From positions 2,400,001 through 2,464,000 of the forward strand of contig OY970223.1 of the NCBI GenBank assembly GCA_963714015.1: a DNA stretch of 64,000 nucleotides, in the 5' to 3' direction. This DNA is from Vulcanimicrobiota bacterium (lineage in GTDB: Bacteria > Vulcanimicrobiota > Vulcanimicrobiia > Vulcanimicrobiales > Vulcanimicrobiaceae). A program made the position numbers and the translations under genes. Below, piece after piece: positions 1 to 51,529 of the stretch; position 1 is the first letter of the stretch, and each line of letters starts with the position of its first letter. Below the pieces are notes generated by a model. The model searched no databases. It had not been told where the DNA came from and worked only from the letters and a program-made list of their open reading frames with translations.

Positions 1-229
1 GCCCTTGCGTACGTGCGGTCTCAGCCAGCGCGAGCATTCCGGTTAAGAAGAGATACACGTCCAGGCCGCTTTGCAATGCCAGCGCAGCCTGATGGACGGG
101 AAGCAATCCGGAGATGACGAGCGCAGCGGCGCCGAGCAGCGACCAGCACCATTCCGGAATTCGAAACGGCCGTGCGGCGACTGCGGCCAACGTCAAACCG
201 CACAGTGTCCAAATCCAGACGGCGCTCAT
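1..229 (-). CDS. ArsB/NhaD-family membrane transporter, N-terminal part (runs off window)
   Basis: Own translation from ATG at 229: MSAVWIWTLCGLTLAAVAARPFRIPEWCWSLLGAAALVISGLLP...GLDVYLFLTGMLALAETAR, resembling the N-terminus of arsenical-pump-type proteins. Not in the ORF track. Confidence 0.7.
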   Translation of the reverse strand, partial: MSAVWIWTLCGLTLAAVAARPFRIPEWCWSLLGAAALVISGLLPVHQAALALQSGLDVYLFLTGMLALAETARTQG

Positions 230-244
230 CTGCGCGGCTTACCC

Positions 245-277
245 AAAAAGAAGAAGGGGCGCCGAAACGCCCCTTCT
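245..277 (-). terminator. Rho-independent terminator
   Basis: AGAAGGGGCG-ccgaaa-CGCCCCTTCT hairpin followed on the minus strand by TCTTTTT, just after the stop of the 304-1319 gene. Confidence 0.8.
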
Positions 278-303
278 ACGGTTACGCCGAAGCGTAGATT
301 GGT

Positions 304-1319
304 TTAGAGGTTCGCGTTGTACGAGGCGCCGATCAGCGTACCGCCGCTGATTCCCGGAGCCAGCTTGCGCGCGACCTTGCCCGCAAGCGTGTACGCCACG
401 CCTTCGTCCAGACCGGCATCGGCCGTCAGGATCTGCGTGTAGGCCTTGTTGACACTGAAGGTCACCGGATCGCTCGCGCCGCTCAGCGTGATCGTGCTGC
501 TGCTCGTCGTGAACGGTGAGGGCCAAACGGAGATGTCGTGGCCGTTTTGGTCGTCAATCCACATGTTCTTGTGGATAATTTGCAGTCCGCCGGGGAACGA
601 GACGGCGGCGGCAACTTTGGGAACTCAATGACTTTGCCTTTGCCGAGCGCCCACTCGTTGACGATGGTGGCACCGCTGCTGTTGCGGCCGTCGGTGAAGA
701 GGTTACCGCTGGGGTCGCAGCCGTCGAAGTATTCTTCGAGCGCACTCGAATCTTTCAGGTGCGAGACCTTGCCGTTGCGAACGATCGCAACGTTGCCGGC
801 GCCGCCGCTCGTCGATTCGATGTTCGTCACTGCGATGTAGCCTTTGCACAGCGCAACGTCAGTCGGGTAGAAGTTGGGATCCGCGATCGTCTTGATCGGG
901 GAGCCCGTGTACGGAGGCGCATATTCCAGGACATTTGACGCGCCCGTATTGGCAACGTAGAGATCGCCCTTGGCGTCGACCGTCAATCCTTGCGGATTGC
1001 TAAGGCCCGTGATCGATCCGCACATCTTTCCGGCGGAGTAAATGTAGACTTCGTTTTCGGTAAAGTCGGAAATGAACATGAGCGAGCTGCCGCAAGCGCC
1101 GTCGATCTTTGTCGCCGGCGTGAAGTATGCGGGCGCCGCCGCCTCAGATACACGATAGCTCATTTGCCGGTGCGTCGACATCATGTTGACCGGTTGAGAG
1201 ATCGTGTGTTGCAGCAATCCTGATCCCGTTGTCGGAATCTGCGATCCGCCGCCCGAGCACGCTGCGAGTGCGAGCGAGGCGACGATGGCGAGTGAACCCA
1301 ATCGCGTGGTTAAACGCAT
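304..1319 (-). CDS. Secreted lipoprotein with NHL/beta-propeller repeats (frameshift near 590)
   Basis: Signal peptide with lipobox LAAC; NHL-like GLSNPQGLTVDAKGDLYVAN; continues in ORF 304..564. Confidence 0.7.
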
Positions 1320-1580
1320 GTAAATGTTCTCCAATAGAAGAGTAACAGTAATCGGTTCCAAGTGAATACGCCGGTGCCCGAACGGCAGCGACGGTTGCCG
1401 GATGCTACCAAAGTATGACGTCCTCGTACGCTTACCTTTTGCGCGGTTTAGGAATTTTGTACTTTCAAAAAGGCGTTCATGCGTCAACGAATGACGCTAT
1501 TCGAACTTTGCTGCGAGCTGACTAATGCGGCATAGTCCGCTTGCCGTTTGGGAGTAGTACAAAAGGCACAAATTGGACCC

Positions 1581-2480
1581 TCAATCCTTCATGCGGTCGC
1601 GGGGATGAGCCGCGTCGTACTGACGCTGTTTGTGCGTCATCGAGATTTTCAGATAGACGCCGGTCGTGGCGAGACTCTCGTGCCCGAGCAGTTCCCGCAC
1701 GGTTTCGAGGTCGACCCCGTTCTCCACCAAGTGCGTCGCAAAGGAATGGCGCAGGGTGTGGGGGCTGGCATGATACGTAATGCCGCTCACGTTATATATG
1801 TCGCGAAAGATCCGCCACACGTGCTTTGGCGTCAAACGCTTTTTCCCGCGTCCCAAAAACAGCGCCGCATCCGTCGTCGCGGGGCGGATGCGCAGATACG
1901 CTTCGATCGCGCGCGCCGCGCTGGTATTGATCAAAACGATCCGCTCTTTGCTGCCCTTGCCGTGCACGTGAATGGTGCGCCGGCGCAGGTTCACGTCTTT
2001 GAGGTCGATGCGCGCGACCTCGGCACGGCGCACACCGCTGGCGTACAGCAGTTCCATGATCGCAGTATCGCGCAGGCGCTGCCATGCGGGTCTGCCGGCA
2101 AGTGACGTCGAGAGCAACTTCCCGACGTCGGGAACGTCCAGATGCTCGGGCGTTTTCTTTTCGATTCGCGGTCCGGGGACGCCGGACGCCGGATCGTCCG
2201 CCCGCTGTCCGTAAAGACGCAAATACTTGTAGAGCGCTTTGATCGACGAAAGCTTTCGCCGCACGGTGCGGCTATCGTAACCGCGATCACCCGCCAGATG
2301 CATGATGTACCGGCGGACGTCCGACGTAGTCGCATCGCGCAGCGGCGCCTTATTCAGGAAGGCAGCGAACTCACGGAGATCCTGCGCGTAGGCCTCGACC
2401 GTCAGCTGGCTGCGGTTGCGCTCCAGGCGGAGGTAGGCCGTGAGCTCCTGGATGAGCGGGTCGACCGGCGGTCTCTCCAC
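1581..2480 (-). CDS. XerC/XerD-type tyrosine recombinase
   Basis: SAM-like N-domain (TVEAYAQDL); ELLYASGVRRAE, HGKGSKER, HTLRHSFATHL, LLGHESLATTGVY give the full R-K-H-R-H-Y catalytic set; 299 aa. Confidence 0.93.
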   Translation of the reverse strand: MERPPVDPLIQELTAYLRLERNRSQLTVEAYAQDLREFAAFLNKAPLRDATTSDVRRYIMHLAGDRGYDSRTVRRKLSSIKALYKYLRLYGQRADDPASGVPGPRIEKKTPEHLDVPDVGKLLSTSLAGRPAWQRLRDTAIMELLYASGVRRAEVARIDLKDVNLRRRTIHVHGKGSKERIVLINTSAARAIEAYLRIRPATTDAALFLGRGKKRLTPKHVWRIFRDIYNVSGITYHASPHTLRHSFATHLVENGVDLETVRELLGHESLATTGVYLKISMTHKQRQYDAAHPRDRMKD

Positions 2481-2503
2481 AGAGTTCTCCTCACGCCTCG
2501 GCT

Positions 2504-2535
2504 GAATGCGACATAATAACAGTTTTATCGCATTC
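2504..2535. other. dif-like recombination site (11-6-11 inverted repeat)
   Basis: GA-ATGCGACATAA-TAACAG-TTTTATCGCAT-TC; the minus strand reads ...CTGTTA-TTATGTCGCAT, with the TTATGT core of dif arms; ~25 bp upstream of the recombinase start. Confidence 0.65.
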
Positions 2536-2611
2536 GAGAAGAGGCCGCTCGGCCCTTTGTGGGCAGGCGGTGGGTGGGAATCGGGGCTTCCGCCGGAATC
2601 TATTGTGTGGG

Positions 2612-2734
2612 GTGCAAGCTGTGCCGAGGACCGTCGTTCGAACCGTATTGATCGGCGTTTTCACGCTGATCGCGATGTTATCCGGATGCGACTTCGCGAC
2701 GCCGCGGCAGTTCGTCGAGTTTTGCTTGGCCTGA
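2612..2734 (+). pseudogene. Short or truncated lipoprotein ORF (40 aa)
   Basis: VQAVPRTVVRTVLIGVFTLIAMLSGCDFATPRQFVEFCLA*: hydrophobic stretch and LSGC lipobox, then an early stop at the island edge. Confidence 0.35.
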
Positions 2735-2808
2735 GATTCCGGTTTGGGTGGCAGTCGAAACCAACCGAGACACGTTGACCTCGCCGAGATCATCCGGTAT
2801 CTGTGGAT

Positions 2809-4300
2809 TCACGGAACGGGAGATGGCCCGGGAACTGTCGCCTTCGGCAAATGCGGAGCAACTGACGCGGCTCCCGGTTCGACTATGTGAGGGGTGATTA
2901 TGATATAAAGGTTCCTTTGCGTTTCAGTGTCGTGACGCGCGCGAAACAGACCTCCGATGATAGACAAAATCACCAAGGCGGGGTACCTTTGAGAAGTTTC
3001 GAATTTCTTCGTCTTCCAATAAGCCGCCCACGACGAAAGGCTGACCCTCCGCGACAGTAGCGCTCGTGCTGACCTGTCGGAGGCTAATCTGAGGAACATT
3101 CCCTTGCTGCGTCGGAACGAACGCCGTCACACTTGAAACCTCCGCAAATAGGTGCGAGGTGACAAAGCGGTCATTCGTAACTCGAGGCTCTATTTGCAAG
3201 TTCAGACCAACCGCAATGTAGTTCACGTTTTGCTGCGTAATTGTAAGGGATCCAGAATAGATTGTAGTTGACGCAATTGGTATTGCGTCGCCGGTCAAAA
3301 TCTGCGCGGATATGCCGTTTTGTGCGACAATTCTTGGGTTCGCCAAGATTCGCCCGCCGCCTCGAGCGATTGTCGCAAAAAGGCTTCCCTGAAAATGGGC
3401 TCGGGATGCGGCACCGAGCCCGTTGTTAATGTTGGAGATCCAGCGGCAACCGGAGTTCCCGCCCCACTAGTTAGATCCAGCCCTAAGTCGCGTGCAGTCT
3501 GTCTGACTAAGTTCGACGACTTCGCACTCCAGCATGACATTTGGTAATGGCTGATCGATCGCTTCAATTTCAGACTTACGGCGCCCGATCTGCTCTGGCA
3601 GTTCCAGAAAGAATCATCGCATTGAGTCTCCGATCCACCGCATGGTGGCGTTGGTGCGTCGCCCGACGCTCTCGATTCTGCTTGAGGCAGCGGCGCAGGT
3701 TGGTAAGGCTGTACTTGGCTCACGCCGGGCGACGTCGGAAGAATAAAACTTGACCGCTGAAACGTGTCGTTGGGAGCGATGCTGTGTCCCTCCACGCGGA
3801 CGCCAACCACTTCACTGATGTCAGCATATTTCAGGTACACTACATCATACGCCGGCGGCGCAGTAGACCGAACACCTTGCCCTAGAGAAAGCGACCGTGT
3901 TGCGCTTGATGCGACGGCGCGGCAACTTCAACGGAAAGAATGTTTGACGATTCGGCCGTGAAGATCGGCGTTGGACTTAACAATTTCATGAGCAGTTGCA
4001 CTTCGCCCGGTACGAGGTTAATGCGAAGAAATTGCAGTAGGCTCATTCCGCTGTACGACAACTGCCGTATGCTTGGAGAAAGCGTCGTCAAGGGAAGCAC
4101 TACGGTAGCATTTTCAGATCCCATCCCATCAACCCGCCAGCCCGCCGGGACGCCACCCGAAAAGGTTAGTGTTAGCACAGCGTTACCGTCTAGCGCCGAC
4201 TGGATGCGAACACGTGTTAGTTGCGAAGTTGCGTGCGCACTTGCAAGGGACATTTTTCTGATGGCACGAAGCAATCCAAAGAAAGCACGCGGCGATCGCC
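2809..4300 (-). pseudogene. Secretin (GspD/PilQ family), multiply frameshifted
   Basis: Fragments NPRIVAQNGISAQILTGDAIP, VGLNLQIEPRV, TSATVAEGQPFVVGGLL, SKVPRLGD, IGGLFR...RNLYIIITPHIV; N-domain YLKYADISEV; spread over at least 4 ORFs; start uncertain. Confidence 0.8.
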
Positions 4301-4347
4301 CCCGGGGCAGCGTTGCTGCATGACTGGGAGAGTCACATCTGGCAGCG

Positions 4348-4995
4348 ATGCAGAAGGTAAAAAACATAGGCCGGCTTCGCGTTCTCGTAATGCTTTTGGG
4401 CACGACTTCCCTTATTGCGATGAACTACTGGCGTTTGGGATGGTTAGAATCGACTACGTACTCGGTTTTGTTCACTTTCTTGTCATACGTTGGGTTGCGT
4501 TGGCCCAGCATAAGAACGGTCTTAGCGGGAAACGCGCCCGACGACCATCTGTCATGGAGCGGTGCCTTCACGGGATCGGTCGTCTCGTGCACCCTAATCT
4601 TTATCTTCAGCCGATCCGCGGCCGGGGCACTTTTCATCCGCGATGCTCTCCTTGTGTTGGCTGGATATTACGCTATTGGAAGGTTGACGTGTGCATCTCT
4701 TGGGTGTTGCAATTTTAAGGACGAGCGTACCAAAAGCATCGTACCGCTTCCGCTCCCGCTCATAGAAGCCGCTTTACTAATAGTGCTTATGAGCTCTGTG
4801 ATGGTTACGCCATTTGCGCCAGGCGTTACGACCGGGTTTGCTTTCGCAGGCTTCGCTGCAGTGAGAGTAATGTCACGACTTTGTCGAGGCCAGGTCATTG
4901 GCTCGGAGTGGACAACATTGTGCTGCCCTGATGCGCTACCAAGCTTCTTCGGAGGCATAGCCTTTGCGTTTGTAGTCCAAGCGTCGGTTCGATAA
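4348..4995 (+). CDS. Divergent prolipoprotein diacylglyceryl transferase (Lgt)-fold membrane protein
   Basis: Multi-TM; Lgt-like motifs in order: HLSWSGAFTG, D...YAIGRLTCASLGCC, PLPLIEA, FAAVRVMSRLCR. Confidence 0.6.
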   Translation: MQKVKNIGRLRVLVMLLGTTSLIAMNYWRLGWLESTTYSVLFTFLSYVGLRWPSIRTVLAGNAPDDHLSWSGAFTGSVVSCTLIFIFSRSAAGALFIRDALLVLAGYYAIGRLTCASLGCCNFKDERTKSIVPLPLPLIEAALLIVLMSSVMVTPFAPGVTTGFAFAGFAAVRVMSRLCRGQVIGSEWTTLCCPDALPSFFGGIAFAFVVQASVR

Positions 4996-6477
4996 GGCAC
5001 TAAATAGGAACAGCACCAGGAGCGATCCCGTGAGCAGTGAACTTCCAAAGCGGCCATAAGGCGTTTCAATGGATACCGGTACATCGACGGTCGCCTCTCC
5101 GATATTCCCAATGCTAAGAACGGGATGCCAGAAGCCTCGACTGTCTATTATACCTGAAGGGCCGGTCGTTCCATCCACGACGATTGGATGTCCCGTCTCG
5201 GCCGCTCGCATCCGCATTCCATCGATTTGTTGAAGGGGCCCCGAGACATCGTGAAACCAACTGTCGTCGGTAGACACTACAACGATTTCATTGCGCTGAA
5301 GCGATTTAACGAACGTTGGGAACATCCCCTCATAGCAAAGCAATGGTCTTATTGTCAACGGCGAGCCCGCTACGGTAAAATCGCGGGTAGCCTGCCCGCG
5401 TTGTAGGTCATGAAGCTGAGTCAGAATAGGGAAAATGCGCTCAAAAGCAGCACGATATGGCACGAACTCTGCGAATGGTACGAGCTGCTGCTTCACATAA
5501 ATGTCATTTGAACCGTCGGGATGTACCTCAACGAGCCTGTTTGAAAAAGTCAGTCCAGTACTCGGCGAGGAAACACCGATCAACAAGGTGAGATTCTCGC
5601 GATGTGCCAGGACGCGCGCCCGTTGCAAACTAACCTCGGCCACTGAAGGGTCGTGGGTGTAGATCGCGTCTTCAGGCCACACGATTAGCGCTGGCTTATG
5701 AAGCGCCGCGCTTTCGGTCAGATGTAGGAGCGTCTTCGTCACGCGAGCTTGTACCAGAGCCACTCGCATAGCACGACCGCCGCTTTGCCGAGTGACCGGA
5801 ACGTGGATCGCAGTCGGGGCGATTAGGAGCGATACGGCAGCCGCCGCTATTACCCAGCGGCGATTTGTAATCGAGAGGTTAAGCATGCAACTTATGCCAA
5901 CCGTGAACGCCGATAGGCCGAGGCTGCCGAATATCGGGAGAAGCAGCTGGGCCATCAGACCATCAACCTGTGACAAGGAGACGGCTCCAAAAGGGAAACC
6001 GTTTGGTCCTGCCATTTGCACCCATTCGGCGCATGCAAACAGTCCAGCTGTGGCAGTCGGCCAAGTTCGAGGAAAGCGGGCCCAAACGACGCACGAAAGC
6101 CCTCCCGCTATGGCGTACGGTGACGCTTTCATGCAAGCCGAAACCAGTGCGATTGCGTAATATGACAGCCCCATGATGCCAGCCGCCGACGCGTATATCC
6201 AATGGCACGAGCTGAGTATGACCGTTACAAAGAATACGTACGCGCAAATGGAGGCCCCCACAGGTGTCAACCGCCGAATTGCTAACAGCGGCGCTTGGAG
6301 CGCGAGTGGCATGAGAAACGAAACGCTAGAAGGAGCGAAGGAAAGCCCGGCAACAGCTCCTGCGCAAATGCTCAGCGCGACGGCCGATCGTGCATCAGAA
6401 GCGAATTTCACGAGACTCGTCTCTACGCGGTGAATTTGCGATGCCGCAATATTGACGGATATCCGTGCGTGTACCAA
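4936..6477 (-). CDS. lnt: Apolipoprotein N-acyltransferase (true start probably ~6410)
   Basis: TM region plus nitrilase domain with E-K-C triad: IVWPEDA, YVKQQLVPFAEFVP, LLCYEGMFP; also STDDSWF, RAAETG, GPSGIID. Confidence 0.9.
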   Translation of the reverse strand: MVHARISVNIAASQIHRVETSLVKFASDARSAVALSICAGAVAGLSFAPSSVSFLMPLALQAPLLAIRRLTPVGASICAYVFFVTVILSSCHWIYASAAGIMGLSYYAIALVSACMKASPYAIAGGLSCVVWARFPRTWPTATAGLFACAEWVQMAGPNGFPFGAVSLSQVDGLMAQLLLPIFGSLGLSAFTVGISCMLNLSITNRRWVIAAAAVSLLIAPTAIHVPVTRQSGGRAMRVALVQARVTKTLLHLTESAALHKPALIVWPEDAIYTHDPSVAEVSLQRARVLAHRENLTLLIGVSSPSTGLTFSNRLVEVHPDGSNDIYVKQQLVPFAEFVPYRAAFERIFPILTQLHDLQRGQATRDFTVAGSPLTIRPLLCYEGMFPTFVKSLQRNEIVVVSTDDSWFHDVSGPLQQIDGMRMRAAETGHPIVVDGTTGPSGIIDSRGFWHPVLSIGNIGEATVDVPVSIETPYGRFGSSLLTGSLLVLFLFSALSNRRLDYKRKGYASEEAW

Positions 6478-7079
6478 TTGCGTCCATTAAACGGCCAGTG
6501 GATCGCTTTTGCATTAATTCCGGTGACTGGGCCAGCCCAAACGGGAATCCTTCGATCATCGGTTGCCGAGACCGGGGCCATGGCAGTGCCGCTGAGCTTT
6601 ACGGGAATACGTGTCTGAAAAGGCTGCGCCCATTGATCGAACATTATTTTGTAGCGGAACGAAACTATTGAAACGCCCCCATAGCCGGCATTGTGCGTTG
6701 CCACAACAGCTGTCGGTTCGATACTCCCATAGCAAACGTAACCTGCGGAAGGTACGTCGCGTAAATAGCGAAGCACGTCTCTATGTTTGGGATTAACATT
6801 GTATGTAAACAGTACGCTATGGTCCCGAACGGTCCGCCCGACTCGTTGGAAGATACCCAGCGAGACCAATGCGTCCTCGAAGTTTTTCCGCGCGTCGTCT
6901 TCGCGGACTGTGTCGGGTAGGGCGATCACATCCGTACAAAGCCGGCCGTGCCACAGCGACTGGTTTTGGATTGCGCTTAGGGTTGGCGAACCGGCCGAGC
7001 AGCCGGTAAGCACTGCCCAAACAAGCAATAATACCGAACCGCGTGAGTCCGAGGGCCAGCCACCACGTCTAATCGTCAC
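6423..7079 (-). CDS. Hypothetical lipoprotein
   Basis: VLLLVWAVLTGC lipobox; start overlaps the stop of the upstream protease gene. Confidence 0.6.
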   Translation of the reverse strand: MTIRRGGWPSDSRGSVLLLVWAVLTGCSAGSPTLSAIQNQSLWHGRLCTDVIALPDTVREDDARKNFEDALVSLGIFQRVGRTVRDHSVLFTYNVNPKHRDVLRYLRDVPSAGYVCYGSIEPTAVVATHNAGYGGVSIVSFRYKIMFDQWAQPFQTRIPVKLSGTAMAPVSATDDRRIPVWAGPVTGINAKAIHWPFNGRNWYTHGYPSILRHRKFTA

Positions 7080-8743
7080 TTGTGATTTTGCGGCCGCGCA
7101 TCAAATGAAAGCGCCCACCGCGCAATAGTATTCGGTGCGACCTGCATTTGAGCTCGGTACTGGCTGATTTGGGAAAATTGCGAGACGCCTCGACTGCGCA
7201 GCAAGGCTTGCAGCAAAGATGATTCGCTGCGTTGGAAGGCCGGCAATCTCGCCACATCAAGAGGCACCGTGTTACCTAGCACGTGCCGCTCGAATTCTGC
7301 AACCGAATGCGCGTTTAACTCAGCCGCAATGCGTGAATTGGTCGAACCGGCCACGTACATCCGGCCGGCGGCGTCGATTCCGATTTTGCTCACATGGGGC
7401 AACACGGGAACATGAAGATTACCAAATGCTGCGAGTTTGCCACGGCCCTGCATGCGGGTAAGGAACACGATGAGATTACTGCCCTCATCGAGCGGTGGAT
7501 CGTCGAGAAATACCCCCGTATCGGCCGGCTGTTGATCTACAACCTGTATTACGTCGCCGGGTTTGCACAGTGAGTCGGGACCAAAGAGATGACGGTAAAT
7601 ATGTAGCACCCGCGCTCTACGAATCGCTGTTCTGAAGGGTCCCTCTCGCACATAGGTTGACCCGGGCAATATCTCCACCCGAGCTACGAGGCTCGACATG
7701 AGATACATCGATTGAATACTGGCGTATGCTGAACCACTATGATCGTCAAGGTGGACCGAGCCGCTTCCGTTGCGTGAATCGCGCCCAAGCCGTGTGGGCG
7801 TACCGAAGGCATCGCCTGTTCCCTGGTAACCTTGTGCGAACGCCCAAGAGGCTGGATAGCGCTTTGGCGCCAGAGGCGGAACAGGGTGCGCAAACTCGGG
7901 CGGTGGACAGTGCGCGTTTCCAGGACACTTGAACGGAGGAGGCGTGAACTTGACAAAATAGGGATCGTATAGGGACTCGAGGTAGGGAGTGTCCCATGAT
8001 GGCAACGGCTGCGCCTCCGTTGTAATGCAGACCGGTACCTTGGGAAACATGATTGAACTCTCGTACTGGTTATGGCTCAAGCCTAGGCTGTGTCCGACCT
8101 CGTGCGCCATCACAGCGTAGACGGTATCAGCACTCTGAAGCGCACTCGCGGAATCAAAAACGATTTTAGCACTCTGGAGAAAGGTTTGATTTAGAGGCTT
8201 GTTAAGCGGGATGTTGCCGAAAGTCTCAACCCCTAAAGTACCATCTTCATTTCCGCCGCCGGTTAAGTCCTCGTCGTAGATCTGTACTTGGCTACCGGTG
8301 GGGTTATTTGTATATGTAAGCCCCAGTTCGAGCGTGCCCGTGGCATTTTGAGCAAGGTCCTTGTCCCAGGCTTCTATTGCGTCCTCTACCGGCGTATAGT
8401 AGCCACTCGCGCTGCTATCAATATAGTAAACGATGGTATAGTTCTCATCCTCCGCTCCCTTTGGCCAATAGATCCCCTGGCTTAGCGTGGAACCATCGCT
8501 CATGTGGATTGTCCATCCGTCCTGCAACGGGCTTGTAGATGGCGCTGTAGAGCATCCGTTGTAATACAACGTCGAGCTCGCTTGGATGGGGTCCGGGTTT
8601 TGTGTCGCAGAGTTTACCGTCGCCGGACCCGCGTTGTAGCCGTTGTTGTTCCCAATTGTACAGCCGTTCGCGTTGCAATCACATGAGTTGCCCATGCAAA
8701 GCAGAACGGGAAGCAAGGCCCCGAGTCGTTTTAAGAACAGCAT
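7076..8743 (-). CDS. Matrixin (M10-like, metzincin) metalloprotease with an extra C-terminal domain
   Basis: HEVGHSLGLSH zinc motif, Met-turn SSIMFP, AIEAWD helix; N-terminal signal; Pro-rich linker then a ~230-aa domain. Confidence 0.85.
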   Translation of the reverse strand: MLFLKRLGALLPVLLCMGNSCDCNANGCTIGNNNGYNAGPATVNSATQNPDPIQASSTLYYNGCSTAPSTSPLQDGWTIHMSDGSTLSQGIYWPKGAEDENYTIVYYIDSSASGYYTPVEDAIEAWDKDLAQNATGTLELGLTYTNNPTGSQVQIYDEDLTGGGNEDGTLGVETFGNIPLNKPLNQTFLQSAKIVFDSASALQSADTVYAVMAHEVGHSLGLSHNQYESSIMFPKVPVCITTEAQPLPSWDTPYLESLYDPYFVKFTPPPFKCPGNAHCPPPEFAHPVPPLAPKRYPASWAFAQGYQGTGDAFGTPTRLGRDSRNGSGSVHLDDHSGSAYASIQSMYLMSSLVARVEILPGSTYVREGPFRTAIRRARVLHIYRHLFGPDSLCKPGDVIQVVDQQPADTGVFLDDPPLDEGSNLIVFLTRMQGRGKLAAFGNLHVPVLPHVSKIGIDAAGRMYVAGSTNSRIAAELNAHSVAEFERHVLGNTVPLDVARLPAFQRSESSLLQALLRSRGVSQFSQISQYRAQMQVAPNTIARWALSFDARPQNHK

Positions 8744-9599
8744 ACTTACCCCCGCTATGAAGCTGGCTCGTTCTCAAGCCATACTAACGACCAAGCTCTC
8801 CCTCCGTCAACTCTCAGAGGTGACAGGAATGAGGCCAGGGCCCTGGGTCGGTATCGACGGGGCAGACCGCGCGGGAAAACGCTCACGTTCAAGCGCAGCC
8901 GTCGCCGAGGTTCAGCGGCGAATTGACGCCGACCGGAAAAAGCGCAAGTCGCTCGGCGTTGTACTCGCCAGGCGTTGGTGGCATATCTTCGAAAGAGTGC
9001 GATTCTGCTGCCGTAGCCTTCCGGTGGGGGCTGGACCCCTTTGCGCAGGCCATTAGTCGACTAAGACAAACGTATCTACTAGGCGATGACCGTATTACTG
9101 AAGCAACGGCAATTCGGGTTTGAGCAAAATGGTCGAATCGTGTTCGAGCATCAGCTACGCGAAACTGTCGTGGCCGCAGCCTCGCACCCCGCGATGAGAG
9201 GCACTCCGCGCCCTCGCCGATTTTTAACACGCAGTTCATCCATCTGTTCACCGTTCACGGTGCGACGGCACAAACGCGAAGCCCAAATGCGGAAACGGCC
9301 CAGACAAGCCCTTTTATACGCATGTGTCAGACCGGTAAACCTACTTTCATACCAAAGTTATCAATGTTGGAGTTAGTGATCGGAGGTACACGCGCTGGAC
9401 GGCTTGCTCTATCCCGAATCGGATCCGCGCGTTGAAGAGCACTATACGGATATCGCCCCCGGTTTACCGACCAACTCTTCTCGCTATAATGATTCTGCTC
9501 GACTTCCGCTTTGCACGGCGCACACGTGACCTCACTCAGAGCCATCTTTACACCACCATCCTCGATATTAATATATTGAATTTCCACAGGTATCACGGC

Positions 9600-10112
9600 G
9601 TCAAGTATCTTAAGGTCGAGGTTGTGGACCAGATCGAATCTCAAGCAATGGGCGCGCGAACGGCCGGACGTCGACACGGAGGCTACGGCCTTGGTCGGCC
9701 GTATTCGGCGCATCGCGCAGATTCTTCGACCGCGGCTGGATGCCATTCACGAACGGTTCGTCTTTTAGGTGAATCGTTCGACGTGCGCGCCTCGCTGCGG
9801 CGTTCGGGTACGCCGGACGCATTGACGCCAACTGATCTCTATATCGTGAAATGATGCTATCGTCGGGCGCGATGACCAACCGGAATCGACCGGCTGGAAC
9901 AGCAAGAACTGGTGGAGCGCCAGCCCGAACCGGCGGACAGCCGCGGAACGCTCGTCAAGTTGACGGTGAAGGGAAAGCATGTCATCGACAAAGCGCGCCT
10001 GGAGCATCTGGCAAACGGAAGGCGCCTGCCGAAAACGCTCTCCGAAACCAGCCACGCACGCCTCTGCGCCCTGTTGCGTAAGTTGCTCCTGAGCCTCGAG
10101 ACTCCACGGTGA
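9600..10112 (+). pseudogene. MarR-family regulator (TamR/UrtR-like), several frameshifts
   Basis: Pieces across frames: QWARERPDVD, FDVRASLRRSGTPDALTPTDL, MLSSGAMTNR, DRLEQQELVERQPEPADSRGTLVKLT. Confidence 0.75.
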
Positions 10113-10810
10113 AGCGCGCTCTTCTGCTTCTCCTGCTGGCCTTGACGGCGTGCGCACCGGCCCTCCCCGATCGGGACATCCACGGATTCATGCCCTTGGG
10201 AGGAACGATCGTCGTTCGGAACCTCAAAGGCGATGTCAATGCATACGCGCCGGCCCGCAATCAGCCGTCGGACGAGTACACCGTCGACGTCTACGGCGAC
10301 GCCGCAAAGCGCGCGCTCATTCGCGTCCGCCCGTTGCTCGTAACGGCGCGGGCGAGTGCTCCCGGCGTCCGTTTTCTGATTCGCGCGCCGAAAGGCGGCT
10401 CGCTCGATCTCAGTACGGGGACCGGTTCCATCAACGTTGCGGACTTCGAAGGCGTCGTCAACGCGCATACCGATCGCGGAGACGTCAAAATGCTGATCCC
10501 GCAGTACGGCAGTGCCTCAGTCGGAACCGGGAACGTCAGCGTCATTTTCGCCTCAACCGATTGGCCGGGAACGCTGCACTTTTCGGTTCGAGACGGGAAC
10601 GTGGAGTTATACGTGAACGAACATGCAAAAGCGCACGTACGGATGCACACGGATAAGGGAACCATTTACAGTGACTTTCCATTGAAGGGTACGTCCGTAG
10701 GATGGAACGAGACGATAGACAGCACGATCAACGGAGGCGGCCCAAGATCGATCGACGTCGAGGTTCGCAGCGGTTCCATCCGCATGATGCAGCTCAAACC
10801 GCAAATCTAG
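10109..10810 (+). CDS. DUF4097-like beta-strand-repeat lipoprotein
   Basis: LTAC lipobox; repeated T-G-[SD]-[IV] strands (TGTGSIN, TDRGDVK, TDKGTIY, VRSGSIR). Confidence 0.7.
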   Translation: MKRALLLLLLALTACAPALPDRDIHGFMPLGGTIVVRNLKGDVNAYAPARNQPSDEYTVDVYGDAAKRALIRVRPLLVTARASAPGVRFLIRAPKGGSLDLSTGTGSINVADFEGVVNAHTDRGDVKMLIPQYGSASVGTGNVSVIFASTDWPGTLHFSVRDGNVELYVNEHAKAHVRMHTDKGTIYSDFPLKGTSVGWNETIDSTINGGGPRSIDVEVRSGSIRMMQLKPQI

Positions 10811-10880
10811 TCGGTGGGGGAGCACTGCCTCTTTAAGATTGCTGCGAAATCCGGTTCTGCGGTTTTCGCTGCGCCTGGGT

Positions 10881-11324
10881 CTAAGGGCCCTCACACTGCT
10901 GAGGAGATAGGGTCATATTTTCGCCGCCTCGTGAGTCGGACACCGATACCGTCGTTATGCCGGCGTTGTAGGCATGCGGATGGAGTCGCAGGAACGTTTT
11001 CGCGTAAGCGTCACGGAGTTGATCCGTCAGTTCGCCCGCACGCTCATCACCCTTTGAAAGACTGTCAGTCCGATCAACAATGGTTATTTCGTGACCGTGC
11101 ACCGCGACAATTCGGAATTCCCTTAGGTCCGGATTCGCTGAAAGTACGCGCTGAAAAGCAGCGATATCCGCTTTCCCCTCGCCCGGCTCGTCCTTAGTCG
11201 GTCCGCACCCATACGCGCATCCGGTGAGCCCGAATACGACCGCGACTGCAACTCCAAGAAGTCCAGAGCGCCTGGAACTACGTTCAGGATTGTATGAAGC
11301 ATGCTGCGATCGTGCCAATTTCAT
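10881..11324 (-). CDS. Hypothetical exported protein or lipoprotein
   Basis: Hydrophobic GVAVAVVFGLTGC; fills the intergenic gap. Confidence 0.5.
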   Translation of the reverse strand: MKLARSQHASYNPERSSRRSGLLGVAVAVVFGLTGCAYGCGPTKDEPGEGKADIAAFQRVLSANPDLREFRIVAVHGHEITIVDRTDSLSKGDERAGELTDQLRDAYAKTFLRLHPHAYNAGITTVSVSDSRGGENMTLSPQQCEGP

Positions 11325-11458
11325 CTACCGATATTCCGAGCTGCGTGAGCCGTCGGATGGCCGAGTTTTCTGCTTCGCACGATTGCGTCCAAGGTCACTG
11401 CAAATCAGGTTGGAAGGAAAGGCTCTCCCCCTTGCGGCCTACTGCGACAAGCGTACGT

Positions 11459-11464
11459 TATAAT
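11459..11464 (+). promoter_or_regulatory. -10 box, probable leaderless promoter
   Basis: TATAAT 7 nt before the ATG at 11472; no Shine-Dalgarno. Confidence 0.55.
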
Positions 11465-11471
11465 CCGTTCT

Positions 11472-12026
11472 ATGAGGCGACCCTTTACTACGATCGGACA
11501 TGGTACGGCGAGCGCCGATGAATTAGCCGCACTTCTGCGCAGCGCCGGAGTTGCTTCGCTGGTCGACGTGCGGACGGTTCCCAAGAGCCGCCGGCACCCG
11601 CACTTCTGGCGTGAAGAACTCGAAGTGTGGATACCGCAGCTCGCGGGCTGCTCGTATACGTGGGCGCCCGCACTAGGCGGATTCCGCAAAGCGCACCCCG
11701 ACAGTCGGAACTTCGCGCTGCGCCATCCGGCTTTCCGCGGTTACGCCGACTATATGGAGACTCCGCCGTTTCGTGAAGCCTTGCGTGACGTGCTCGAGCA
11801 GGCCGCCGGCGTTCAAACCGCGGTCATGTGCTCGGAGAGCCTCTGGTGGCGCTGTCACCGCCGCCTGATCGCGGACGCGGCGCAGTTGCTTCACGGTGTC
11901 GAGGTCTTGCATTTGATGCACGACGGTAAACTGCGTCCGCACGTCCCGACGCCGGGTGCACGCGTCGATGCATCCGGCGTTCTGCGGTACGACGACCTTA
12001 CTGCCGCGGATTCAGGAAAGAGTTGA
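11472..12026 (+). CDS. DUF488-family protein
   Basis: TIGHGT, LVDVRTVPKSRRHPHF, LGGFR, FRGYADYM, MCSESLWWRCHRRLIAD. Confidence 0.88.
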   Translation: MRRPFTTIGHGTASADELAALLRSAGVASLVDVRTVPKSRRHPHFWREELEVWIPQLAGCSYTWAPALGGFRKAHPDSRNFALRHPAFRGYADYMETPPFREALRDVLEQAAGVQTAVMCSESLWWRCHRRLIADAAQLLHGVEVLHLMHDGKLRPHVPTPGARVDASGVLRYDDLTAADSGKS

Positions 12027-12892
12027 CGATGTTTCCGATGTTGCTCGATCCGCCGGCCTGCTGCGCGCCTTCGGCCGCCGGCTCGTGGTACGTCATCGAC
12101 TGTATGCCGACGCGCCCGGGTCCGTAAAAGCGGTTCAGCATGAGCGCAGCGCCGCCCACGAAGGCGCCGAGCGCGCCCATCAATCCGCCGCCGCCTCCGG
12201 ACTTCAAAACCGAGACCGTGTCCATGCGCACGTTCGCGTCTTTCCAAAGCCAGCCGCCGGGTTCGACGTCGAGCATCTCACCGGGCGCGAGCGTCTTTTC
12301 GAACACGTTGCCGTAACCGTGAATCAGCACGAATCCTTCGGACGGCCCTGCCGTGAAACGATCGATGAATAATCCCGTGCGCGAGAATAGCACGTTTGCC
12401 AAGCCTTGCTGCCAATAGAAGTTGTAGTCCACGCTGCTGGTAGCGAGGAGGAACTGGTGCTCGCGCACGTCGACCGACTGTCCGGGCCCAAGCCGCAGCG
12501 CGACGATTTGTCCGGGCGCCTCACGTGAAAATGCAATGTTCCCGGGACCCTGCGCCGTTGAAATGAAGATCTGCAAGCCGGAGAAAAAACGCTTCGCGGC
12601 GTTTTGAATACTCATGAACCCAAGCGTGACGTTGGGCTGCTTCCAAAGCAAGATATGGTGTTCGAAGTACACCGTCTGCTGCCGTCCCAACTCGACGTCG
12701 ACCACCGGAACCAGCTCGCCTTCGACGCGAATGGTCATGTCGCCGAGCGAGATCGGCGTCTTCGGGTTGTCCATCTCGGGCTGCGGCTCGGAGTACGAAC
12801 CGACGGTGGTCGTCTGTGGAATGGGCGCGCCGCAATTGGGGCAGAAACTTGGAACTATCGGGAACCGCTGCTTGGCACGACGGACAATTCAT
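11998..12892 (-). CDS. AIM24-family protein with N-terminal zinc ribbon (frameshift ~12845)
   Basis: MNCPSCQ...KF(C)PNCGAP; EGELVPVVDVEL, GPGNIAFS, LIHGYGNVFEKTL, GPGRVGIQSM. Confidence 0.8.
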
Positions 12893-12959
12893 GATGCGTC
12901 CCTCTCCGCCGGCAGAACGTGCGCTCGGCCTGCGTTGCTTCTGCCCGCCGGGCGCGCGA

Positions 12960-13893
12960 TCATGCGCGCGTCCTCGCCAGCCCTTCCTTTGCCTTGATGA
13001 GCCGCAGCATTGCGTCGTTGTACGGAGTGCCCACTCCAGTGCGCCGTCCCGCCGCGCAGACGGCGCCGTTGATGTGATCGATCTCGCTCGGATGTCCCGT
13101 CTCCAGATCGAACGCCATCGAGCTCTTGCTGTCGGCGCCCACGGCGATCACTTCGGTCACGTAGGTCCATGGATTCGCAAACGGCAGATTGATCTTCAGC
13201 GCCGCTGCTACGGCCGCCGCCTCTTCGGCAAGCGCTTCGGCAAGGCGGGCGGCATTCGGCTCGCGCAAGATCTCGCCGGCGTCGCAATCGAGCAACGCGC
13301 TGAGCGCATTGATTGCCGCGTTAGCGACGAGCTTTCCCCAGAGGTGCGGACGGATGTCGTAAACTACGGACGCGCGCATTCCGCTCACTGTAAGAAGTTC
13401 GGCGACGCTCCGTGAGGTTGCAGGGGACGCGCCGCCCGATCCGACGATGGTGTTGCCTTCCTCCGAACTGCGGACGCGTCCCGGAGAGACCGTCAGCTGA
13501 GGATTCGGTCGTGATTCCGAGCACGACCGGCACCGCCCCGCCGAGCGCGGTTTTGATCGCATCTTCGTTTCCGACGCCGTTTTGCAGCGAGACGATCGGC
13601 GTCGATGGACTGAGCTCGCCCGCAAACGGACGCAACGCGCGCAGCGTGTCCACAGCCTTGACGAACAAGAACACGACGTTCGAACCGAAGAGATCGCGCC
13701 AGTGCCGGCCGATCCGCACCGGACGGACGGACTCTTCGTTGACGCTCAGACCGCCGGCTCGCTCGATCTCGCCGAGTACGGCCGGATTGCTGTCGAGCAT
13801 CGTCACTTCGCAGCGCGAGGCCAAGTGGAATCCGAAAAGCGTTCCCATCGCTCCCGATCCGATGATGCCGACGCGCTGGCGGTTCTGCTCCAT
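12960..13893 (-). CDS. panE: 2-dehydropantoate 2-reductase (frameshift ~13500)
   Basis: GIIGSGAMG, LFVKA, SLQNGVG, WGKLVANAAINAL, KSSMAFD, EIDHINGAV. Confidence 0.88.
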
Positions 13894-39249: not shown

Positions 39250-42200
39250 CTAAGTCCTGGCTTGCGCGCATCGGTACTCTTGCAGGGTCCGCGGAGGGCC
39301 GGCCTCCACTTCCAACGCTTCCGCCAGAGCGCGGGCGGTGTCCAGACTGGTCAAACACGCGATATTCGCTTCGACTGCCGCCCGCCGAATCTTGTAGTTG
39401 TCGGAGATCTCGCGCGGGCCTTGCGCGTCATTGACGACCAAGTCGACGGCGCGCTGCGCAATCAAATCGAGCACGTGCGGCGAACCGGCGGCGATTTTAT
39501 TGATGCGTTCGCACGGAATGCCCGCGGACCGCAGCACCTCCTGCGTACCGGACGTGGCTGTCAAGCGATGGCCGAGGCCGACGTAGCGGCGCAACACCGG
39601 GATCGCTGCCTGCTTCTCTTCATCTGCGATCGAAACCAGGATCCGGCCGCCGCTGCTGGGCAGCCGGACGCCGGCGCCGATGAAACCTTTGCGCAGAGCG
39701 CCGCCGAACGTTTCATCGATGCCGAGGACTTCGCCGGTGGACTTCATCTCGGGTCCCAAGATCGTTTCAACGCCGCGCATCTTCGCAAAAGAGAATACGG
39801 GGATCTTCACGACGACGAACGGCGCGCGCGGCGTAAGGCCCGTGCCGTACTGCATCTGAGCGAGTTTTTCACCGAGCGCAATGCGGGTGGCCGCGGCAAC
39901 CAGATTGACCCCCGTGGCTTTTTGAATGATCGGTACCGTGCGGCTCGCGCGCGGGTTTGCCTCGATGATGTAGAGCCGGCCTTCGTGGATCACAAATTGA
40001 ATGTTGATCAGGCCGCGAATGTTCAGCTCGCGCGCAATCGAAGTGGTGACCTCGACGATCCGCTGCTCCATCTCAGGCGCGACGGTCTGGGTCGGATAGA
40101 CGCTGATCGAGTCTCCCGAATGAATCCCCGCGCGCTCGATGTGCTCGAACACGCCGGGAATCAGAATATCGGTTCCGTCGAACGCCGCGTCGACTTCAAC
40201 TTCCAAACCCCGCAAATATTTGTCGACCAGCAGCGGCGCGTCCGGCAGAATCGGCGGGGCGGATTCGGCATACGAGGCCAGCTGGCCCTCGTTGTAAACG
40301 ATTTCCATGCCGCGACCGCCGAGAACGTATGACGGCCTAACCAGCACGGGGAACCCGAGCTCGCGCGCGATAACGCGCGCCTCACGAAACGATCGGGCTG
40401 CTTTTCCCTGTGGACGCGCAACTCCCAGCCGATGAAGCGCCGCGTCGAATTTTTCCCGGTCCTCCGCCATGTCGAGACTGCGCCGGTCGCTTCCGACGAT
40501 GCGCACGTCGCGCCGCGCAAGCTCGTCAGCCAGATTGATCGCGGTTTGGCCGCCGAACGCGAGCATCACGCCGCGCGCCTGCGTCGCCCGGTACGCCGCT
40601 TCCACTTCGTCTGCACCCGGGGGCTCGAAGACCAGCACGTCCGAAATATCGAAGTCCGTCGAGACCGTTTCAGGATTGTTATTGACGACGACCGGCGAGC
40701 AACCCGCCTCGCGAAGCGCCCAGGCGGCGTGCACGCACGAATAATCGAACTCGATGCCCTGGCCGATGCGGATGGGCCCGCTGCCCACGACGACGACGGC
40801 TTCCTTCGACGGCCGGCGCATCTCGTTGCTCTCGTTGCGCGCGATATAGTAGTAGGGCGATTTGGCTGGGAACTCGGCCGCAGCGGTGTCTACCATTCGA
40901 AACGCCACGCCGTTGTGCGCATGGGCGCGTCCCGCGACGCCGGCCGAATACCCGTTCTCTAGGGCTTGCAGCGTGTCGGCGTTCGAGGCGCCGGCGCGAA
41001 TGCGTTCTTCCAGGCTTACGAGTTCTTGAACTCGTAGAGCCAGAAAGGATCGATTGCCGAAAGCTCCACGATCCGCTGGATCGGAATGCCCCTGCGCAGC
41101 CCTTCCGCTACCGCAAAAAGCCGCTCGTGATTGGGTCTTGCAATGACGGCTTCCAATTCCGCGTCGCTCCACTCGGCAAGCGCGCTTCCCGTCAGCGTTT
41201 CGCGTTTGAGATCCAGGCCGCGTACCGCTTTCATCAACGCAGCGCCAAAGGTGCGGCCGATGCCCATGGCCTCGCCCGTAGACTTCATCTGCGTTCCGAG
41301 CGTGGTGTCGGCAAGCGGAAATTTGTCGAACGGCCATCGCGGAATCTTGACGACGACGTAGTCCAGCGTCGGTTCGTAGGCGGCTTTCGTCACGCCCGTA
41401 ACGGGATTCGGAATTTCGTCCAGCGTCTGCCCGAGTGCGATTCGCGTGCTGATTTTGGCGATCGGATAACCGGTGGCTTTGCTTGCCAGCGCGGAACTGC
41501 GAGAGACGCGGGGGTTCACTTCGATGATCCGGTATTCGCTTCGCTCCGGATGCAGCGCGAACTGGATGTTGCAGCCGCCTTCGACGCGCAGCGCGCGAAT
41601 AACGTTCAAACTCGAACTGCGCAGCATCTGGTATTCCAAATCCGAGAGCGTCTGCGATGGCGCTACGACGATCGAATCTCCGGTGTGAACGCCGACGGGA
41701 TCGATGTTCTCCATGTTGCAGACGATGATGCAGTTGTTCGCCGCATCGCGCAGCACTTCGTACTCGATCTCTTTCCAGCCTAAAAGGGAAGTTTCCAACA
41801 GGACTTGATGAATGAGACTCGCCGCGAGTCCCGTTTCCAGCGTTTGAAGCAGTTCCCGCTCGTCATAGACGATGCCGCCGCCTGTTCCACCTAAAGTGTA
41901 CGCGGGGCGGACGACGAGCGGATAGCCGTGATCGGCGGCAAAAGCCAGACCTTCGTCGCTTCGCGTAACGATTGCGCTTTGCGGAACCGGCTCGCCGATC
42001 TCGATCATCTTAGCCTTGAAGCGCTCGCGGTCTTCAGCGAGCTTGATCGTCTCGACCGGAGTCCCCAGCAGCTGCACGCCGTAACGCTCGAGGATGCCCG
42101 CCTCGTGCAACTCGACCGCTAAATTGAGTCCGGTCTGGCCGCCGAGCGTCGGCAGCAGCGCGTCGGGCCGCTCCCGCTCGATGATGCCCTCGAGCGAAGC

Positions 42201-42401
42201 CGTCGTCAGCGGCTCCAGATACACGGCCTCCGCGATCTCGGGATCCGTCATGATCGTCGCCGGGTTCGAGTTGACAAGGATGACGCGGTGACCTTCCTCC
42301 CGCAAGGCACGGCACGCTTGCACGCCGGCATAATCAAATTCTGCGGCTTGGCCTATGACGATGGGGCCCGAGCCGATGACCAGTACGTTGCGGGGGGGCA
42401 T
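39250..42401 (-). CDS. carB: Carbamoyl-phosphate synthase large subunit (frameshift ~41020)
   Basis: [30 protein letters not shown], two ATP-grasp domains, MGS tail. Confidence 0.97.
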
Positions 42402-51000: not shown

Positions 51001-51529
51001 CGATCGCGACCTCGTCGGAGTCGGCAGGCGCCGAGCGCACGCTCACCGCCACCCGTTCTCGCCGGCTGGTCGGAATGAATCGCCCAACATAGTCAGCCTG
51101 AATCGGCAGCTCGCGCAAACCGCGATCGACCAGCACGCAAAGGCGAATTGCGGATGGACGGCCCAGATCGGTAACGGCATCGAGCGCCGAGCGGATGGTT
51201 CTTCCCGTGTACAGCACGTCGTCCACGATCACGACCATCTTGCCCGTGAGGTCGCCCGGAATCTGTGATTCCGGAAGCTCGTGCGAGATCGCGTCGTCGC
51301 GATAGAGATTGATGTTCAGGAATCCCAGCGCCGGCCTTCGGCGGCTGATCCGTTCGATGTGGTCCGCCAGCCGTTGCGCCACCGCTTCGCCGCCGCGGCG
51401 AATCCCGATGATGAACAGGCCTTCCTGCGCGTCCTCGGGTTCGAGGACTTGATGGGCGAGCCGGGCGAGAATGCGGTCGATCTCGGCATGTTCTACCAGA
51501 ACTCGCCGCTTTACGGCCGATGCCGTCAT
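50984..51529 (-). CDS. pyrR: PyrR regulator/UPRTase
   Basis: LYRDD, VDDVLYTGRTIRSA, DRGLRELPIQADYVG. Confidence 0.94.
   Translation of the reverse strand: MTASAVKRRVLVEHAEIDRILARLAHQVLEPEDAQEGLFIIGIRRGGEAVAQRLADHIERISRRRPALGFLNINLYRDDAISHELPESQIPGDLTGKMVVIVDDVLYTGRTIRSALDAVTDLGRPSAIRLCVLVDRGLRELPIQADYVGRFIPTSRRERVAVSVRSAPADSDEVAIVADQA

Follow-up and report, generated by a model that had tools for sequence, protein, structure and literature searches.

The DNA analysed here, a stretch of 64 kilobases (kb) referred to below as the window, belongs to a soil-dwelling member of the phylum Vulcanimicrobiota (Eremiobacterota) and contains an acquired, partly decayed island of about 7 kb. The reading to which we give somewhat better than even credence is that this island carries an accessory lipoprotein-acylation cassette that travels with its own clients. 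The cassette would consist of a divergent apolipoprotein N-acyltransferase (Lnt), encoded in one operon with a matrixin-like protease and a lipoprotein, and of a small membrane protein with the core fold of Lgt (mini-Lgt), whose gene overlaps the end of lnt. The island also holds a frame-broken secretin gene that we do not regard as part of a working export route; a system that both lipidates and exports its cargo is unlikely. The island and its features, with lengths in amino acids (aa), are as follows.

2574..9600 (borders approximate, no strand): acquired island of about 7 kb, recognized by its GC content and its absence from relatives
2812..4274, minus strand: secretin gene of the phylum's own family of about 500 aa (Secretin_N and Secretin domains; PF00263), frame-broken
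4348..4995, plus strand: mini-Lgt, a polytopic membrane protein of 215 aa that has the Lgt-core fold but no head domain, recognized by fold match
4936..6477, minus strand, likely start GTG 6411: lnt, apolipoprotein N-acyltransferase (TIGR00546)
6423..7079, minus strand: lipoprotein with lipobox LTGC and Cys27, read from the translation
7076..8743, minus strand: M10 (matrixin-like) zinc metalloprotease of 555 aa (PF00413)
9130..9551, plus strand: decayed relic, cut off at both ends, of a Tn3-family transposase gene, found by blastn against plasmids

A foreign island in a variable interval

The island is set apart from its surroundings by composition. GC content is 0.548 over positions 2481-9600 compared with 0.624 over 12001-64000, and in segments of 500 nucleotides (nt) it stays at 0.52-0.58 from ~2500 to ~9750 and at 0.60-0.65 in the flanks on both sides. 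GC at third codon positions (GC3) is 0.739 +/- 0.031 in 30 host open reading frames (ORFs) and 0.52-0.59 in the island genes, which places them about 5 to 6 standard scores lower (z about -5 to -6; mini-Lgt 0.565, lnt 0.566, lipoprotein 0.571, protease 0.588, frame-corrected secretin 0.524). An AT-richer block had been described at this position in an earlier note on the same DNA, and both the sliding GC profile and the GC3 profile bear it out. The left border of the island lies between 2574 and 2811 and the right border between 9551 and 9875; conservation of the left flank in relatives is limited to 2481-2573.

Relatives were compared through the two host genes that bracket the island.

1581..2480, minus strand: Xer-type tyrosine recombinase, a host gene (PF00589, 1e-40; GC3 0.78)
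10109..10810, plus strand: DUF4097 'toastrack' lipoprotein (PF13349), the conserved right host flank, with orthologues beside xer in 61 of 73 loci

One genome per species was scanned with the adjacent Xer protein, which gave these 73 loci; 70 of them belong to metagenome-assembled genomes of Vulcanimicrobiota/Eremiobacterota, with Xer orthologues 59-71% identical. The full series GlmS-RNasePH-MlaE-MlaF-MlaD-ApbA-DUF4097 is kept in 45-52 of the 73. The xer-DUF4097 interval measures 7628 bp here; where the two genes are neighbours in relatives (61 loci), its median length is 1410 bp (range 27-4255). Its content in relatives (L002-L072) is a varying set made up of a GH114 glycosidase, one or two phosphoesterase-family (PF04185) genes and unnamed ORFs. 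Because length and content differ among relatives, the interval is, on this comparison, a variable spot and the island appears as an insertion into it. The relatives' interval can also be described in its own right as a variable locus of secreted enzymes beside dif.

Searches of the 73 related loci with the secretin pieces, mini-Lgt, Lnt, the lipoprotein and the protease (tblastn, E<=1e-5) returned no match in any of them, so that the foreign block proposed in the earlier note stands on composition and on the absence of every island gene from syntenic loci. No tRNA was found across the 64-kb window and no Rfam family matched positions 1-13000 at E<=0.1; the island DNA has no match in a phage collection, and no phage or plasmid replication genes were found. 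Foreign composition, uniqueness among relatives, a variable interval close to the replication terminus and a transposase relic together identify the island as foreign DNA that was horizontally acquired and is partly decayed.

The protease-lipoprotein-lnt operon

The first gene of the operon encodes a zinc metalloprotease that scores 37.6 bits against PF00413 (cut-off 24) over profile positions 97-158 of 159. Its zinc site HEVGHSLGLSH (HExxHxxGxxH) and its SIMFP Met-turn align with MMP-13 and karilysin, and its matches in the PDB are MMP-13, MMP-8 and karilysin. Its catalytic domain aligns with karilysin (PDB 2XS3) over ~140 residues and carries the same two motifs; unlike karilysin, the protein has an extra C-terminal region of ~290 aa and a Cys-rich N-terminal end, and no propeptide was identified in it. 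The C-terminal ~290 aa match no family. The N-terminus is a signal-like segment that ends in the Cys-rich string VLLCMGNSCDC, without a canonical lipobox as judged by eye.

The second gene encodes a small lipoprotein with no Pfam or NCBIfam match. Its neighbours in a protein language model are unnamed lipoprotein clusters (0.93), and an AF2 model built from the single sequence is unusable (pLDDT 30); the protein may conceivably be LolB-like.

The third gene, lnt, is recognized at 184 bits by TIGR00546 (cut-off 132.9), with PF20154 (LNT_N) at 54.7 against a cut-off of 27.1 and PF00795 (CN_hydrolase) at 45.3 against 23.2. Residues E269, K329 and C381 correspond to the catalytic triad of E. coli Lnt, given as Glu267-Lys335-Cys387 in excerpts of PMC8689077, and occupy invariant columns of an eight-sequence alignment that includes E. 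coli Lnt (A3). The protein resembles E. coli Lnt in its LNT_N plus CN_hydrolase architecture and in the motifs around the triad. It differs in being 25% identical, in missing ~14 residues around the conserved QGN(I/V)PQSLKW stretch, and in lying on an island, in one transcription unit with the genes of a protease and a lipoprotein. The best of 27 matches in 5.8 billion clusters is 32% identical. Island Lnt is thus predicted to be catalytically complete yet highly divergent, and it would retain N-acylation activity.

The three genes are co-oriented and appear to form one tightly packed operon. At the first junction, the stop codon of the protease gene runs into the GTG start of the lipoprotein gene in the sequence GTGA. 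At the second junction, the lipoprotein and lnt overlap by 55 nt if lnt starts at TTG 6477 and are separated by an 11-nt gap if it starts at GTG 6411, which is the likely start: it aligns better with the N-terminus of E. coli Lnt. The matrixin-like protease, the LTGC lipoprotein and the intact lnt named in the earlier note were all recovered here (by PF00413 and the motif alignments, by the lipobox in the translation, and by TIGR00546 and the conserved triad, respectively). Its description of the genes as overlapping and co-oriented holds for their orientation and for the first junction, and depends at the second on the choice of start codon. Upstream of the protease gene lies a weak promoter-like site:

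8781..8810, minus strand: TTGACG, 18-nt spacer, TAGTAT, from a consensus scan

Nine such consensus sites were found in the region, with 4.8 expected.

Mini-Lgt, a head-less protein with an Lgt-like fold

The mini-Lgt gene runs towards lnt and overlaps its end tail to tail by 60 nt. An exhaustive search of 1.84 billion representatives returned 11 relatives at E<=1e-3, the best at E 1.4e-26 with 34% identity over 174 residues; a word-seeded search recovered nothing, mini-Lgt itself included. The family alignment (A1) omits a 97-aa fragment (P0033) and P0034, a 1581-aa PKD-repeat protein that was judged a spurious relative. Shared motifs are GLRWP, LSWSG, YYxxG[RK]xxCxxxGCC, LPxxE and RxxSRxxR, and residues G49, A73, Y108, G111, C115, G119, C120, L136 and P137 are invariant. 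These relatives and their shared positions show mini-Lgt to be a real conserved protein family. No match to it was found in the plasmid collection. The ORF has no identical or near-identical entry in two protein collections and is apparently unannotated in the source record.

The Lgt assignment comes from structure. An AF2 model built with A1 is an all-helical membrane protein (pLDDT 86.1, pTM 0.80), and a Foldseek search of the PDB places E. coli Lgt (5azb) at the top with E 6.6e-3, probability 1.00 and TM 0.58, the next match having a TM of ~0.25. The nearest named clusters in the language model are LGT as well (0.85 and 0.83). Mini-Lgt is therefore named after its modelled fold and is not placed in the Lgt family PF01790. 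Mini-Lgt shares four short motifs with E. coli Lgt, and their order along the two proteins agrees, although no residue-level alignment reaches significance; under this tentative mapping, R112, E140, R173 and R180 of mini-Lgt would stand for Arg143, Glu202, Arg239 and Arg246. The spacing from the Arg motif to the Glu motif is 28 residues in mini-Lgt and 59 in E. coli Lgt, and mini-Lgt has no periplasmic head. The best and only convincing fold match of mini-Lgt is E. coli Lgt (PDB 5AZB), from which it differs in length (215 aa vs 291), in lacking the head, in an invariant C-x3-G-C-C motif and in having no significant sequence match to it.

The secretin and the question of export

The earlier note had proposed a dedicated module that lipidates a protease and exports or displays it. 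Spelled out, mini-Lgt and after it Lnt would modify the cargo, and the module's own secretin would be its way out. We consider this very improbable as a whole. Its foreign block, its Lnt operon and its Lgt-like fold survive analysis, and the five genes do lie in one compositionally uniform block in which protease, lipoprotein and lnt share an operon. The export half is not supported by the secretin, which is present in the orientation reported (~4274-2812, minus strand, divergent from the Lgt-like gene) and is not an open gene.

The PF00263 match is split over frames, with profile positions 5-139 (94 bits) in one and 124-169 (33 bits) in another. A custom frameshift-aware alignment, accurate to about +/- 10 nt, places seven frameshifts at about 3914, 3687, 3649, 3599, 3499, 3408 and 2968. 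Seven are counted against P0040 and P0044 and eight against P0039 and P0041. Against P0040 the secretin is 298/480 identical over the full length, with no in-frame stop. It belongs to the host phylum's own multi-copy family: 105 homologues of greater length reach 77% identity to its C-terminal piece, several of them named Baltobacteraceae/Eremiobacteraeota, and the homologues carry PF03958 plus PF00263. Two homologues from outside the window, P0040 (494 aa) and P0043 (404 aa), share 71-72% identity with the C-terminal piece; the genome of the window very probably encodes both as paralogues. It would thus probably have the family in three or more copies. Membership in the host phylum's family, together with two probable same-genome paralogues, fits a redundant copy and not a foreign partner of the cassette.

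How far the frameshifts can be trusted depends on the assembly. Among the host genes, carB (39250-42401) and valS (51526-54133) are each split into two overlapping ORFs, and comparison with relatives adds one break in apbA/panE (~13494), three in an mlaD-like gene (~15663, ~15214 and ~15063) and one in mlaE (~17323), with none in mlaF, rph or glmS. Since valS is essential and yet split, the assembly evidently contains indel errors. The frame-corrected secretin has full length and no nonsense codon and keeps 83 of the 88 family-conserved positions; its 5 mismatches rank it 7th of 88 sequences, the other 87 averaging 1.9%. The gene might therefore be intact and its breaks could be partly or wholly assembly artefacts. 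Against this, the host background is 7 breaks in about 12.3 kb (0.57 per kb) and the secretin has 7 in 1.46 kb (4.8 per kb), which gives P(>=7) = 3e-5 at the host rate and 0.026 at the worst local host rate. The secretin is probably a recently inactivated redundant copy. The marR region (9600-10109) is also among the frameshift-split genes.

A secretin alone cannot export, and no type II secretion system (T2SS) or type IV pilus (T4P) platform, ATPase or pseudopilin gene was found by Pfam among the 64 ORFs of the window. The absence of Lsp and of T2SS/T4P inner-membrane genes, which the earlier note had itself remarked on, was confirmed over the same ORFs. The combination of genes occurs in none of the 73 related loci, which also speaks against an established export module. 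In Klebsiella, the lipoprotein pullulanase is exported via a T2SS secretin. Vulcanimicrobium alpinus, a relative in culture, is described in excerpts of PMC9758169 as a typical diderm with a lipopolysaccharide-bearing outer membrane and type IV pili; triacylation of lipoproteins and native secretins are accordingly plausible in the phylum.

Arrival beside a dif-like site

The left edge of the island lies next to a candidate chromosome-dimer-type recombination site:

2506..2533, minus strand: dif-like site of 28 nt (11+6+11), ATGCGATAAAA CTGTTA TTATGTCGCAT

The two arms are symmetric at 8 of 11 positions and the site lies 25 nt upstream of xer. It is the single copy in the window at <=3 mismatches (0 expected). 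In relatives, a site with >=22 of 28 matches precedes xer in all 69 Vulcanimicrobiota loci with upstream sequence, at a median distance of 44 nt. The cumulative GC skew of the window has its maximum at ~7-9 kb. Site architecture, conservation before xer and the GC-skew peak together suggest a dif-like site near the replication terminus that is linked to its recombinase and would be recombined by it. The adjacent Xer scores 278 bits against TIGR02224, under the cut-off of 335; as a candidate for the island's own integrase it was rejected, being a host gene by its GC3 and its orthologues in 70 loci. The site may be a phylum-wide, recombinase-linked dif site, possibly of a single-recombinase Xer system. 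Linkage of a recombination site to its recombinase gene is known from XerS/difSL and XerH/difH (excerpts of PMC5357621), and the present arrangement is like theirs: a 28-nt 11+6+11 dyad site that directly precedes xer in every one of the 69 loci, beside a variable interval.

Proximity to this site invites the alternative that the island is an IMEX-like element that entered at the dif-like site via the host Xer, with the Tn3 relic as a later or passenger insertion. IMEX elements that integrate at dif are known (excerpts of PMC5357621), the island begins only ~40-280 nt from a dif-like site conserved in every locus compared, and the interval beside it varies from tens of base pairs to several kb among relatives. 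IMEX elements are flanked by dif and a dif-like site; here a second dif-like site was found neither at the far end of the island nor elsewhere in the window, where the best other match (19/28) is at background level. The lack of phage or plasmid replication genes and of any match in the phage collection adds to the difficulty. Terminus regions gather foreign DNA for other reasons too. Taking both sides together, we regard entry of the IMEX kind as unlikely.

The right edge of the island holds the transposase relic, whose DNA matches tnpA in 62 plasmid records by blastn. Compared with a TnpA of 989 aa, its core is identical at 57 of 95 positions (TnpA residues 689-785) and is interrupted by 4 frameshifts and one stop; it aligns with a score of 234 compared with 70-89 for five shuffled sequences; a weaker extension to ~9130 (TnpA from residue ~620) scores 72 compared with 38-56 when shuffled. 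When 8700-10150 was cut into 20 stop-to-stop pieces, Pfam found no domain in 19 of them, and the relic came to light only through DNA similarity to plasmid tnpA. Hallmarks of a Tn3 transposon are missing, with no intact TnpA and no resolvase domain in those pieces. Tn3-family inverted repeats (about 38 bp) usually begin with GGGG and end with TAAG. A 39-40-nt GGGG(G)...TAAG stretch occurs on the plus strand at 9026-9065, ~70-100 nt left of the relic. Matches to this pattern number 5 in the window against 5.04 by chance, no inverted partner was found for 9026-9065, and the surroundings of the reference tnpA in L076 showed no inverted repeats either. The relic, together with the location next to dif, suggests that the island came in on a mobile element.

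Weighing the proposed acylation cassette

In the acylation-cassette reading, the lipoprotein, and possibly the protease by way of its Cys-rich signal end, would be exported by Sec. The exported client would be S-lipidated by the host Lgt or by mini-Lgt and cleaved by the host Lsp, which is invoked because the island encodes none. Island Lnt would N-acylate the client, and the island would thus supply the acylation state that its clients need. All enzymatic activities, the client relationship and the mode of integration are put forward here from predicted proteins and genome comparison.

The condition of the genes is consistent with continued use. The island contains two decayed features (secretin and tnpA) and four open genes, and two of the four, lnt and mini-Lgt, were confirmed as unbroken against homologues. 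Breaks number 7 in 1.46 kb of secretin, 5 in 0.3 kb of tnpA relic and 0 in 2.1 kb of lnt plus mini-Lgt; at the break rate of the secretin, the latter two would be expected to carry 10.2 (P(0) = 4e-5). Intact lnt and mini-Lgt beside a decayed secretin and tnpA suggest that the open island genes are maintained by selection.

Several observations weigh against the cassette, in addition to the points in favour of an intact secretin and the missing second dif-like site given above. No convincing direct or inverted repeats were found to flank the island. Among the 27 Lnt matches, which came from a weak word-seeded search, no second Lnt of this genome appeared, and the island lnt could be the genome's sole lnt. 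The sequence of mini-Lgt has no Pfam match (E<=10) and no NCBIfam match; only one of ten family members matches LGT (PF01790), at E 0.0079; searches of the PDB by sequence and by profile gave 0 matches; and hhalign of mini-Lgt with E. coli Lgt gives a probability of 0.66%. When 185,579 species genomes were scanned for the pattern of a four-sequence alignment (A2), a scan that distant members would escape, no close relative turned up, and any conserved linkage of mini-Lgt with this type of Lnt is hypothetical. The activity of E. coli Lgt needs the His103-Gly-Gly-Leu motif, Asn146 and Tyr235, according to excerpts of PMC8689077, and under the motif-order mapping S71, C115 and F169 stand at His103, Asn146 and Tyr235. 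Mini-Lgt may therefore lipidate no proteins. The convergent Lgt-fold gene of the earlier note keeps its fold (5azb, TM 0.58) and loses the standing of a canonical Lgt, since it fails PF01790 and has apparently lost these three residues.

Some of these points lead to another explanation, in which unrelated acquired genes have accumulated beside dif as in a junkyard, the sole functional tie among them being the protease-lipoprotein-lnt operon, Lnt is the cell's general N-acyltransferase and possibly its only one, and mini-Lgt has nothing to do with lipoproteins. The variable interval of relatives with its unrelated secreted enzymes, the decay of two of seven island features, the lack of several Lgt catalytic residues in mini-Lgt by motif mapping and the failure of a second Lnt to surface all agree with it. 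On the other hand, the uniform GC3 of all island genes suggests a single origin; a rare divergent Lgt fold and an Lnt, which represent successive pathway steps, overlap by 60 nt, an unlikely arrangement for unrelated genes; and both have stayed unbroken while their neighbours decay. We consider the junkyard explanation improbable on balance, though it deserves to be taken seriously.

A bolder extension of the acylation cassette would make mini-Lgt and the divergent Lnt a self-contained mobile acylation pair with its own substrate specificity that spreads among soil bacteria by insertion beside xer-linked dif sites. Mini-Lgt would lipidate clients that the host Lgt refuses, such as the protease with its non-canonical VLLC/GNSC end, and Lnt would triacylate them. 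We hold this to be quite improbable. If it were true, mini-Lgt would represent a new bacterial family of protein-lipidating enzymes, parallel to archaeal AliA/AliB.

Neighbouring segments

Rearrangement has also affected the flanks in some lineages. DUF4097 is downstream of xer in 9 of the 61 loci (L003, L005, L006, L007, L009, L010, L028, L051 and L070), and the whole GlmS...ApbA series is co-inverted in 6 of those 9, which implies that the xer-dif module or the flank was inverted in some lineages. Between DUF4097 and apbA, a second lineage-specific segment (10881-12774) carries a small LTGC lipoprotein, DUF488 and AIM24. Its lipoprotein and DUF488 match 0 of 73 loci and AIM24 matches one (L028, 89% over 93 aa); the DUF4097-apbA distance in relatives is about 0.5 kb.

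Significance and comparison with known systems

Lgt, Lsp and Lnt are usually viewed as fixed housekeeping enzymes and antibiotic targets. Divergent island-borne copies suggest that the acyl state of particular lipoproteins can be horizontally acquired and tuned in environmental diderms too; the main example so far has been lit2 plus lgt in Firmicutes. The mini-Lgt family combines a minimal Lgt fold with a conserved-residue set of its own. Should its members be enzymes, they would tell what Lgt can do without and might point to a further class of substrates. The analysis has two by-products: a dif-like site, linked to xer and conserved, that applies to an entire phylum with hardly any cultivated members, and a warning that assembly frameshifts occur even in valS and carB, so pseudogene calls in the window need read-level support.

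Paralogous lipoprotein-modifying enzymes are known in other settings. Streptomyces has paralogous Lgt and Lnt enzymes. In Myxococcus, lspA paralogues lie within an antibiotic gene cluster, according to excerpts of PMC8689077. Among the papers listed on Lnt paralogues and islands and on Eremiobacterota secretins, none gives an account of the present combination, to judge by titles and the opening lines of abstracts. The earlier note's view that the combination is undescribed is nevertheless only half right, because lit2 and an additional lgt have already been described together on a mobile element, the copper-resistance element of Firmicutes (Armbruster et al. 2019, summarized in excerpts of PMC8689077). 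The novelty lies in the particular set: an Lgt-fold family that lacks the head and has a C-x3-G-C-C motif, a highly divergent Lnt and the operon with the M10 protease, found together in a diderm whose phylum has hardly been studied.

For the fold of mini-Lgt, a precedent comes from archaea. AliA and AliB (arCOG02177/02178) are Lgt-derived proteins that HHpred relates to Lgt at only 29% and that were recognized through model architecture and two conserved arginines; genetics show that they lipidate lipoproteins with substrate selectivity (excerpts of PMC12462473). Mini-Lgt is similarly remote from Lgt by sequence, and AliA/AliB are a precedent for remote proteins that are true lipidation enzymes. 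As described in the same excerpts, AliA/AliB differ from mini-Lgt in their archaeal origin, in retaining both an arm and a head subdomain, and in being core genes passed on vertically.

For the island as a whole, the nearest known system is the Firmicutes element. As summarized in the excerpts cited above, it too is mobile, it too carries two lipoprotein-modifying enzymes, acting at the S-diacylglyceryl step and on the N-terminal acyl state, together with cargo, and its hosts already have a housekeeping pathway. That element pairs the intramolecular transacylase Lit with a canonical lgt and copper-resistance cargo in monoderm hosts, whereas the island pairs Lnt with a head-less Lgt-fold protein and carries an M10 protease and a lipoprotein as cargo in a diderm host.

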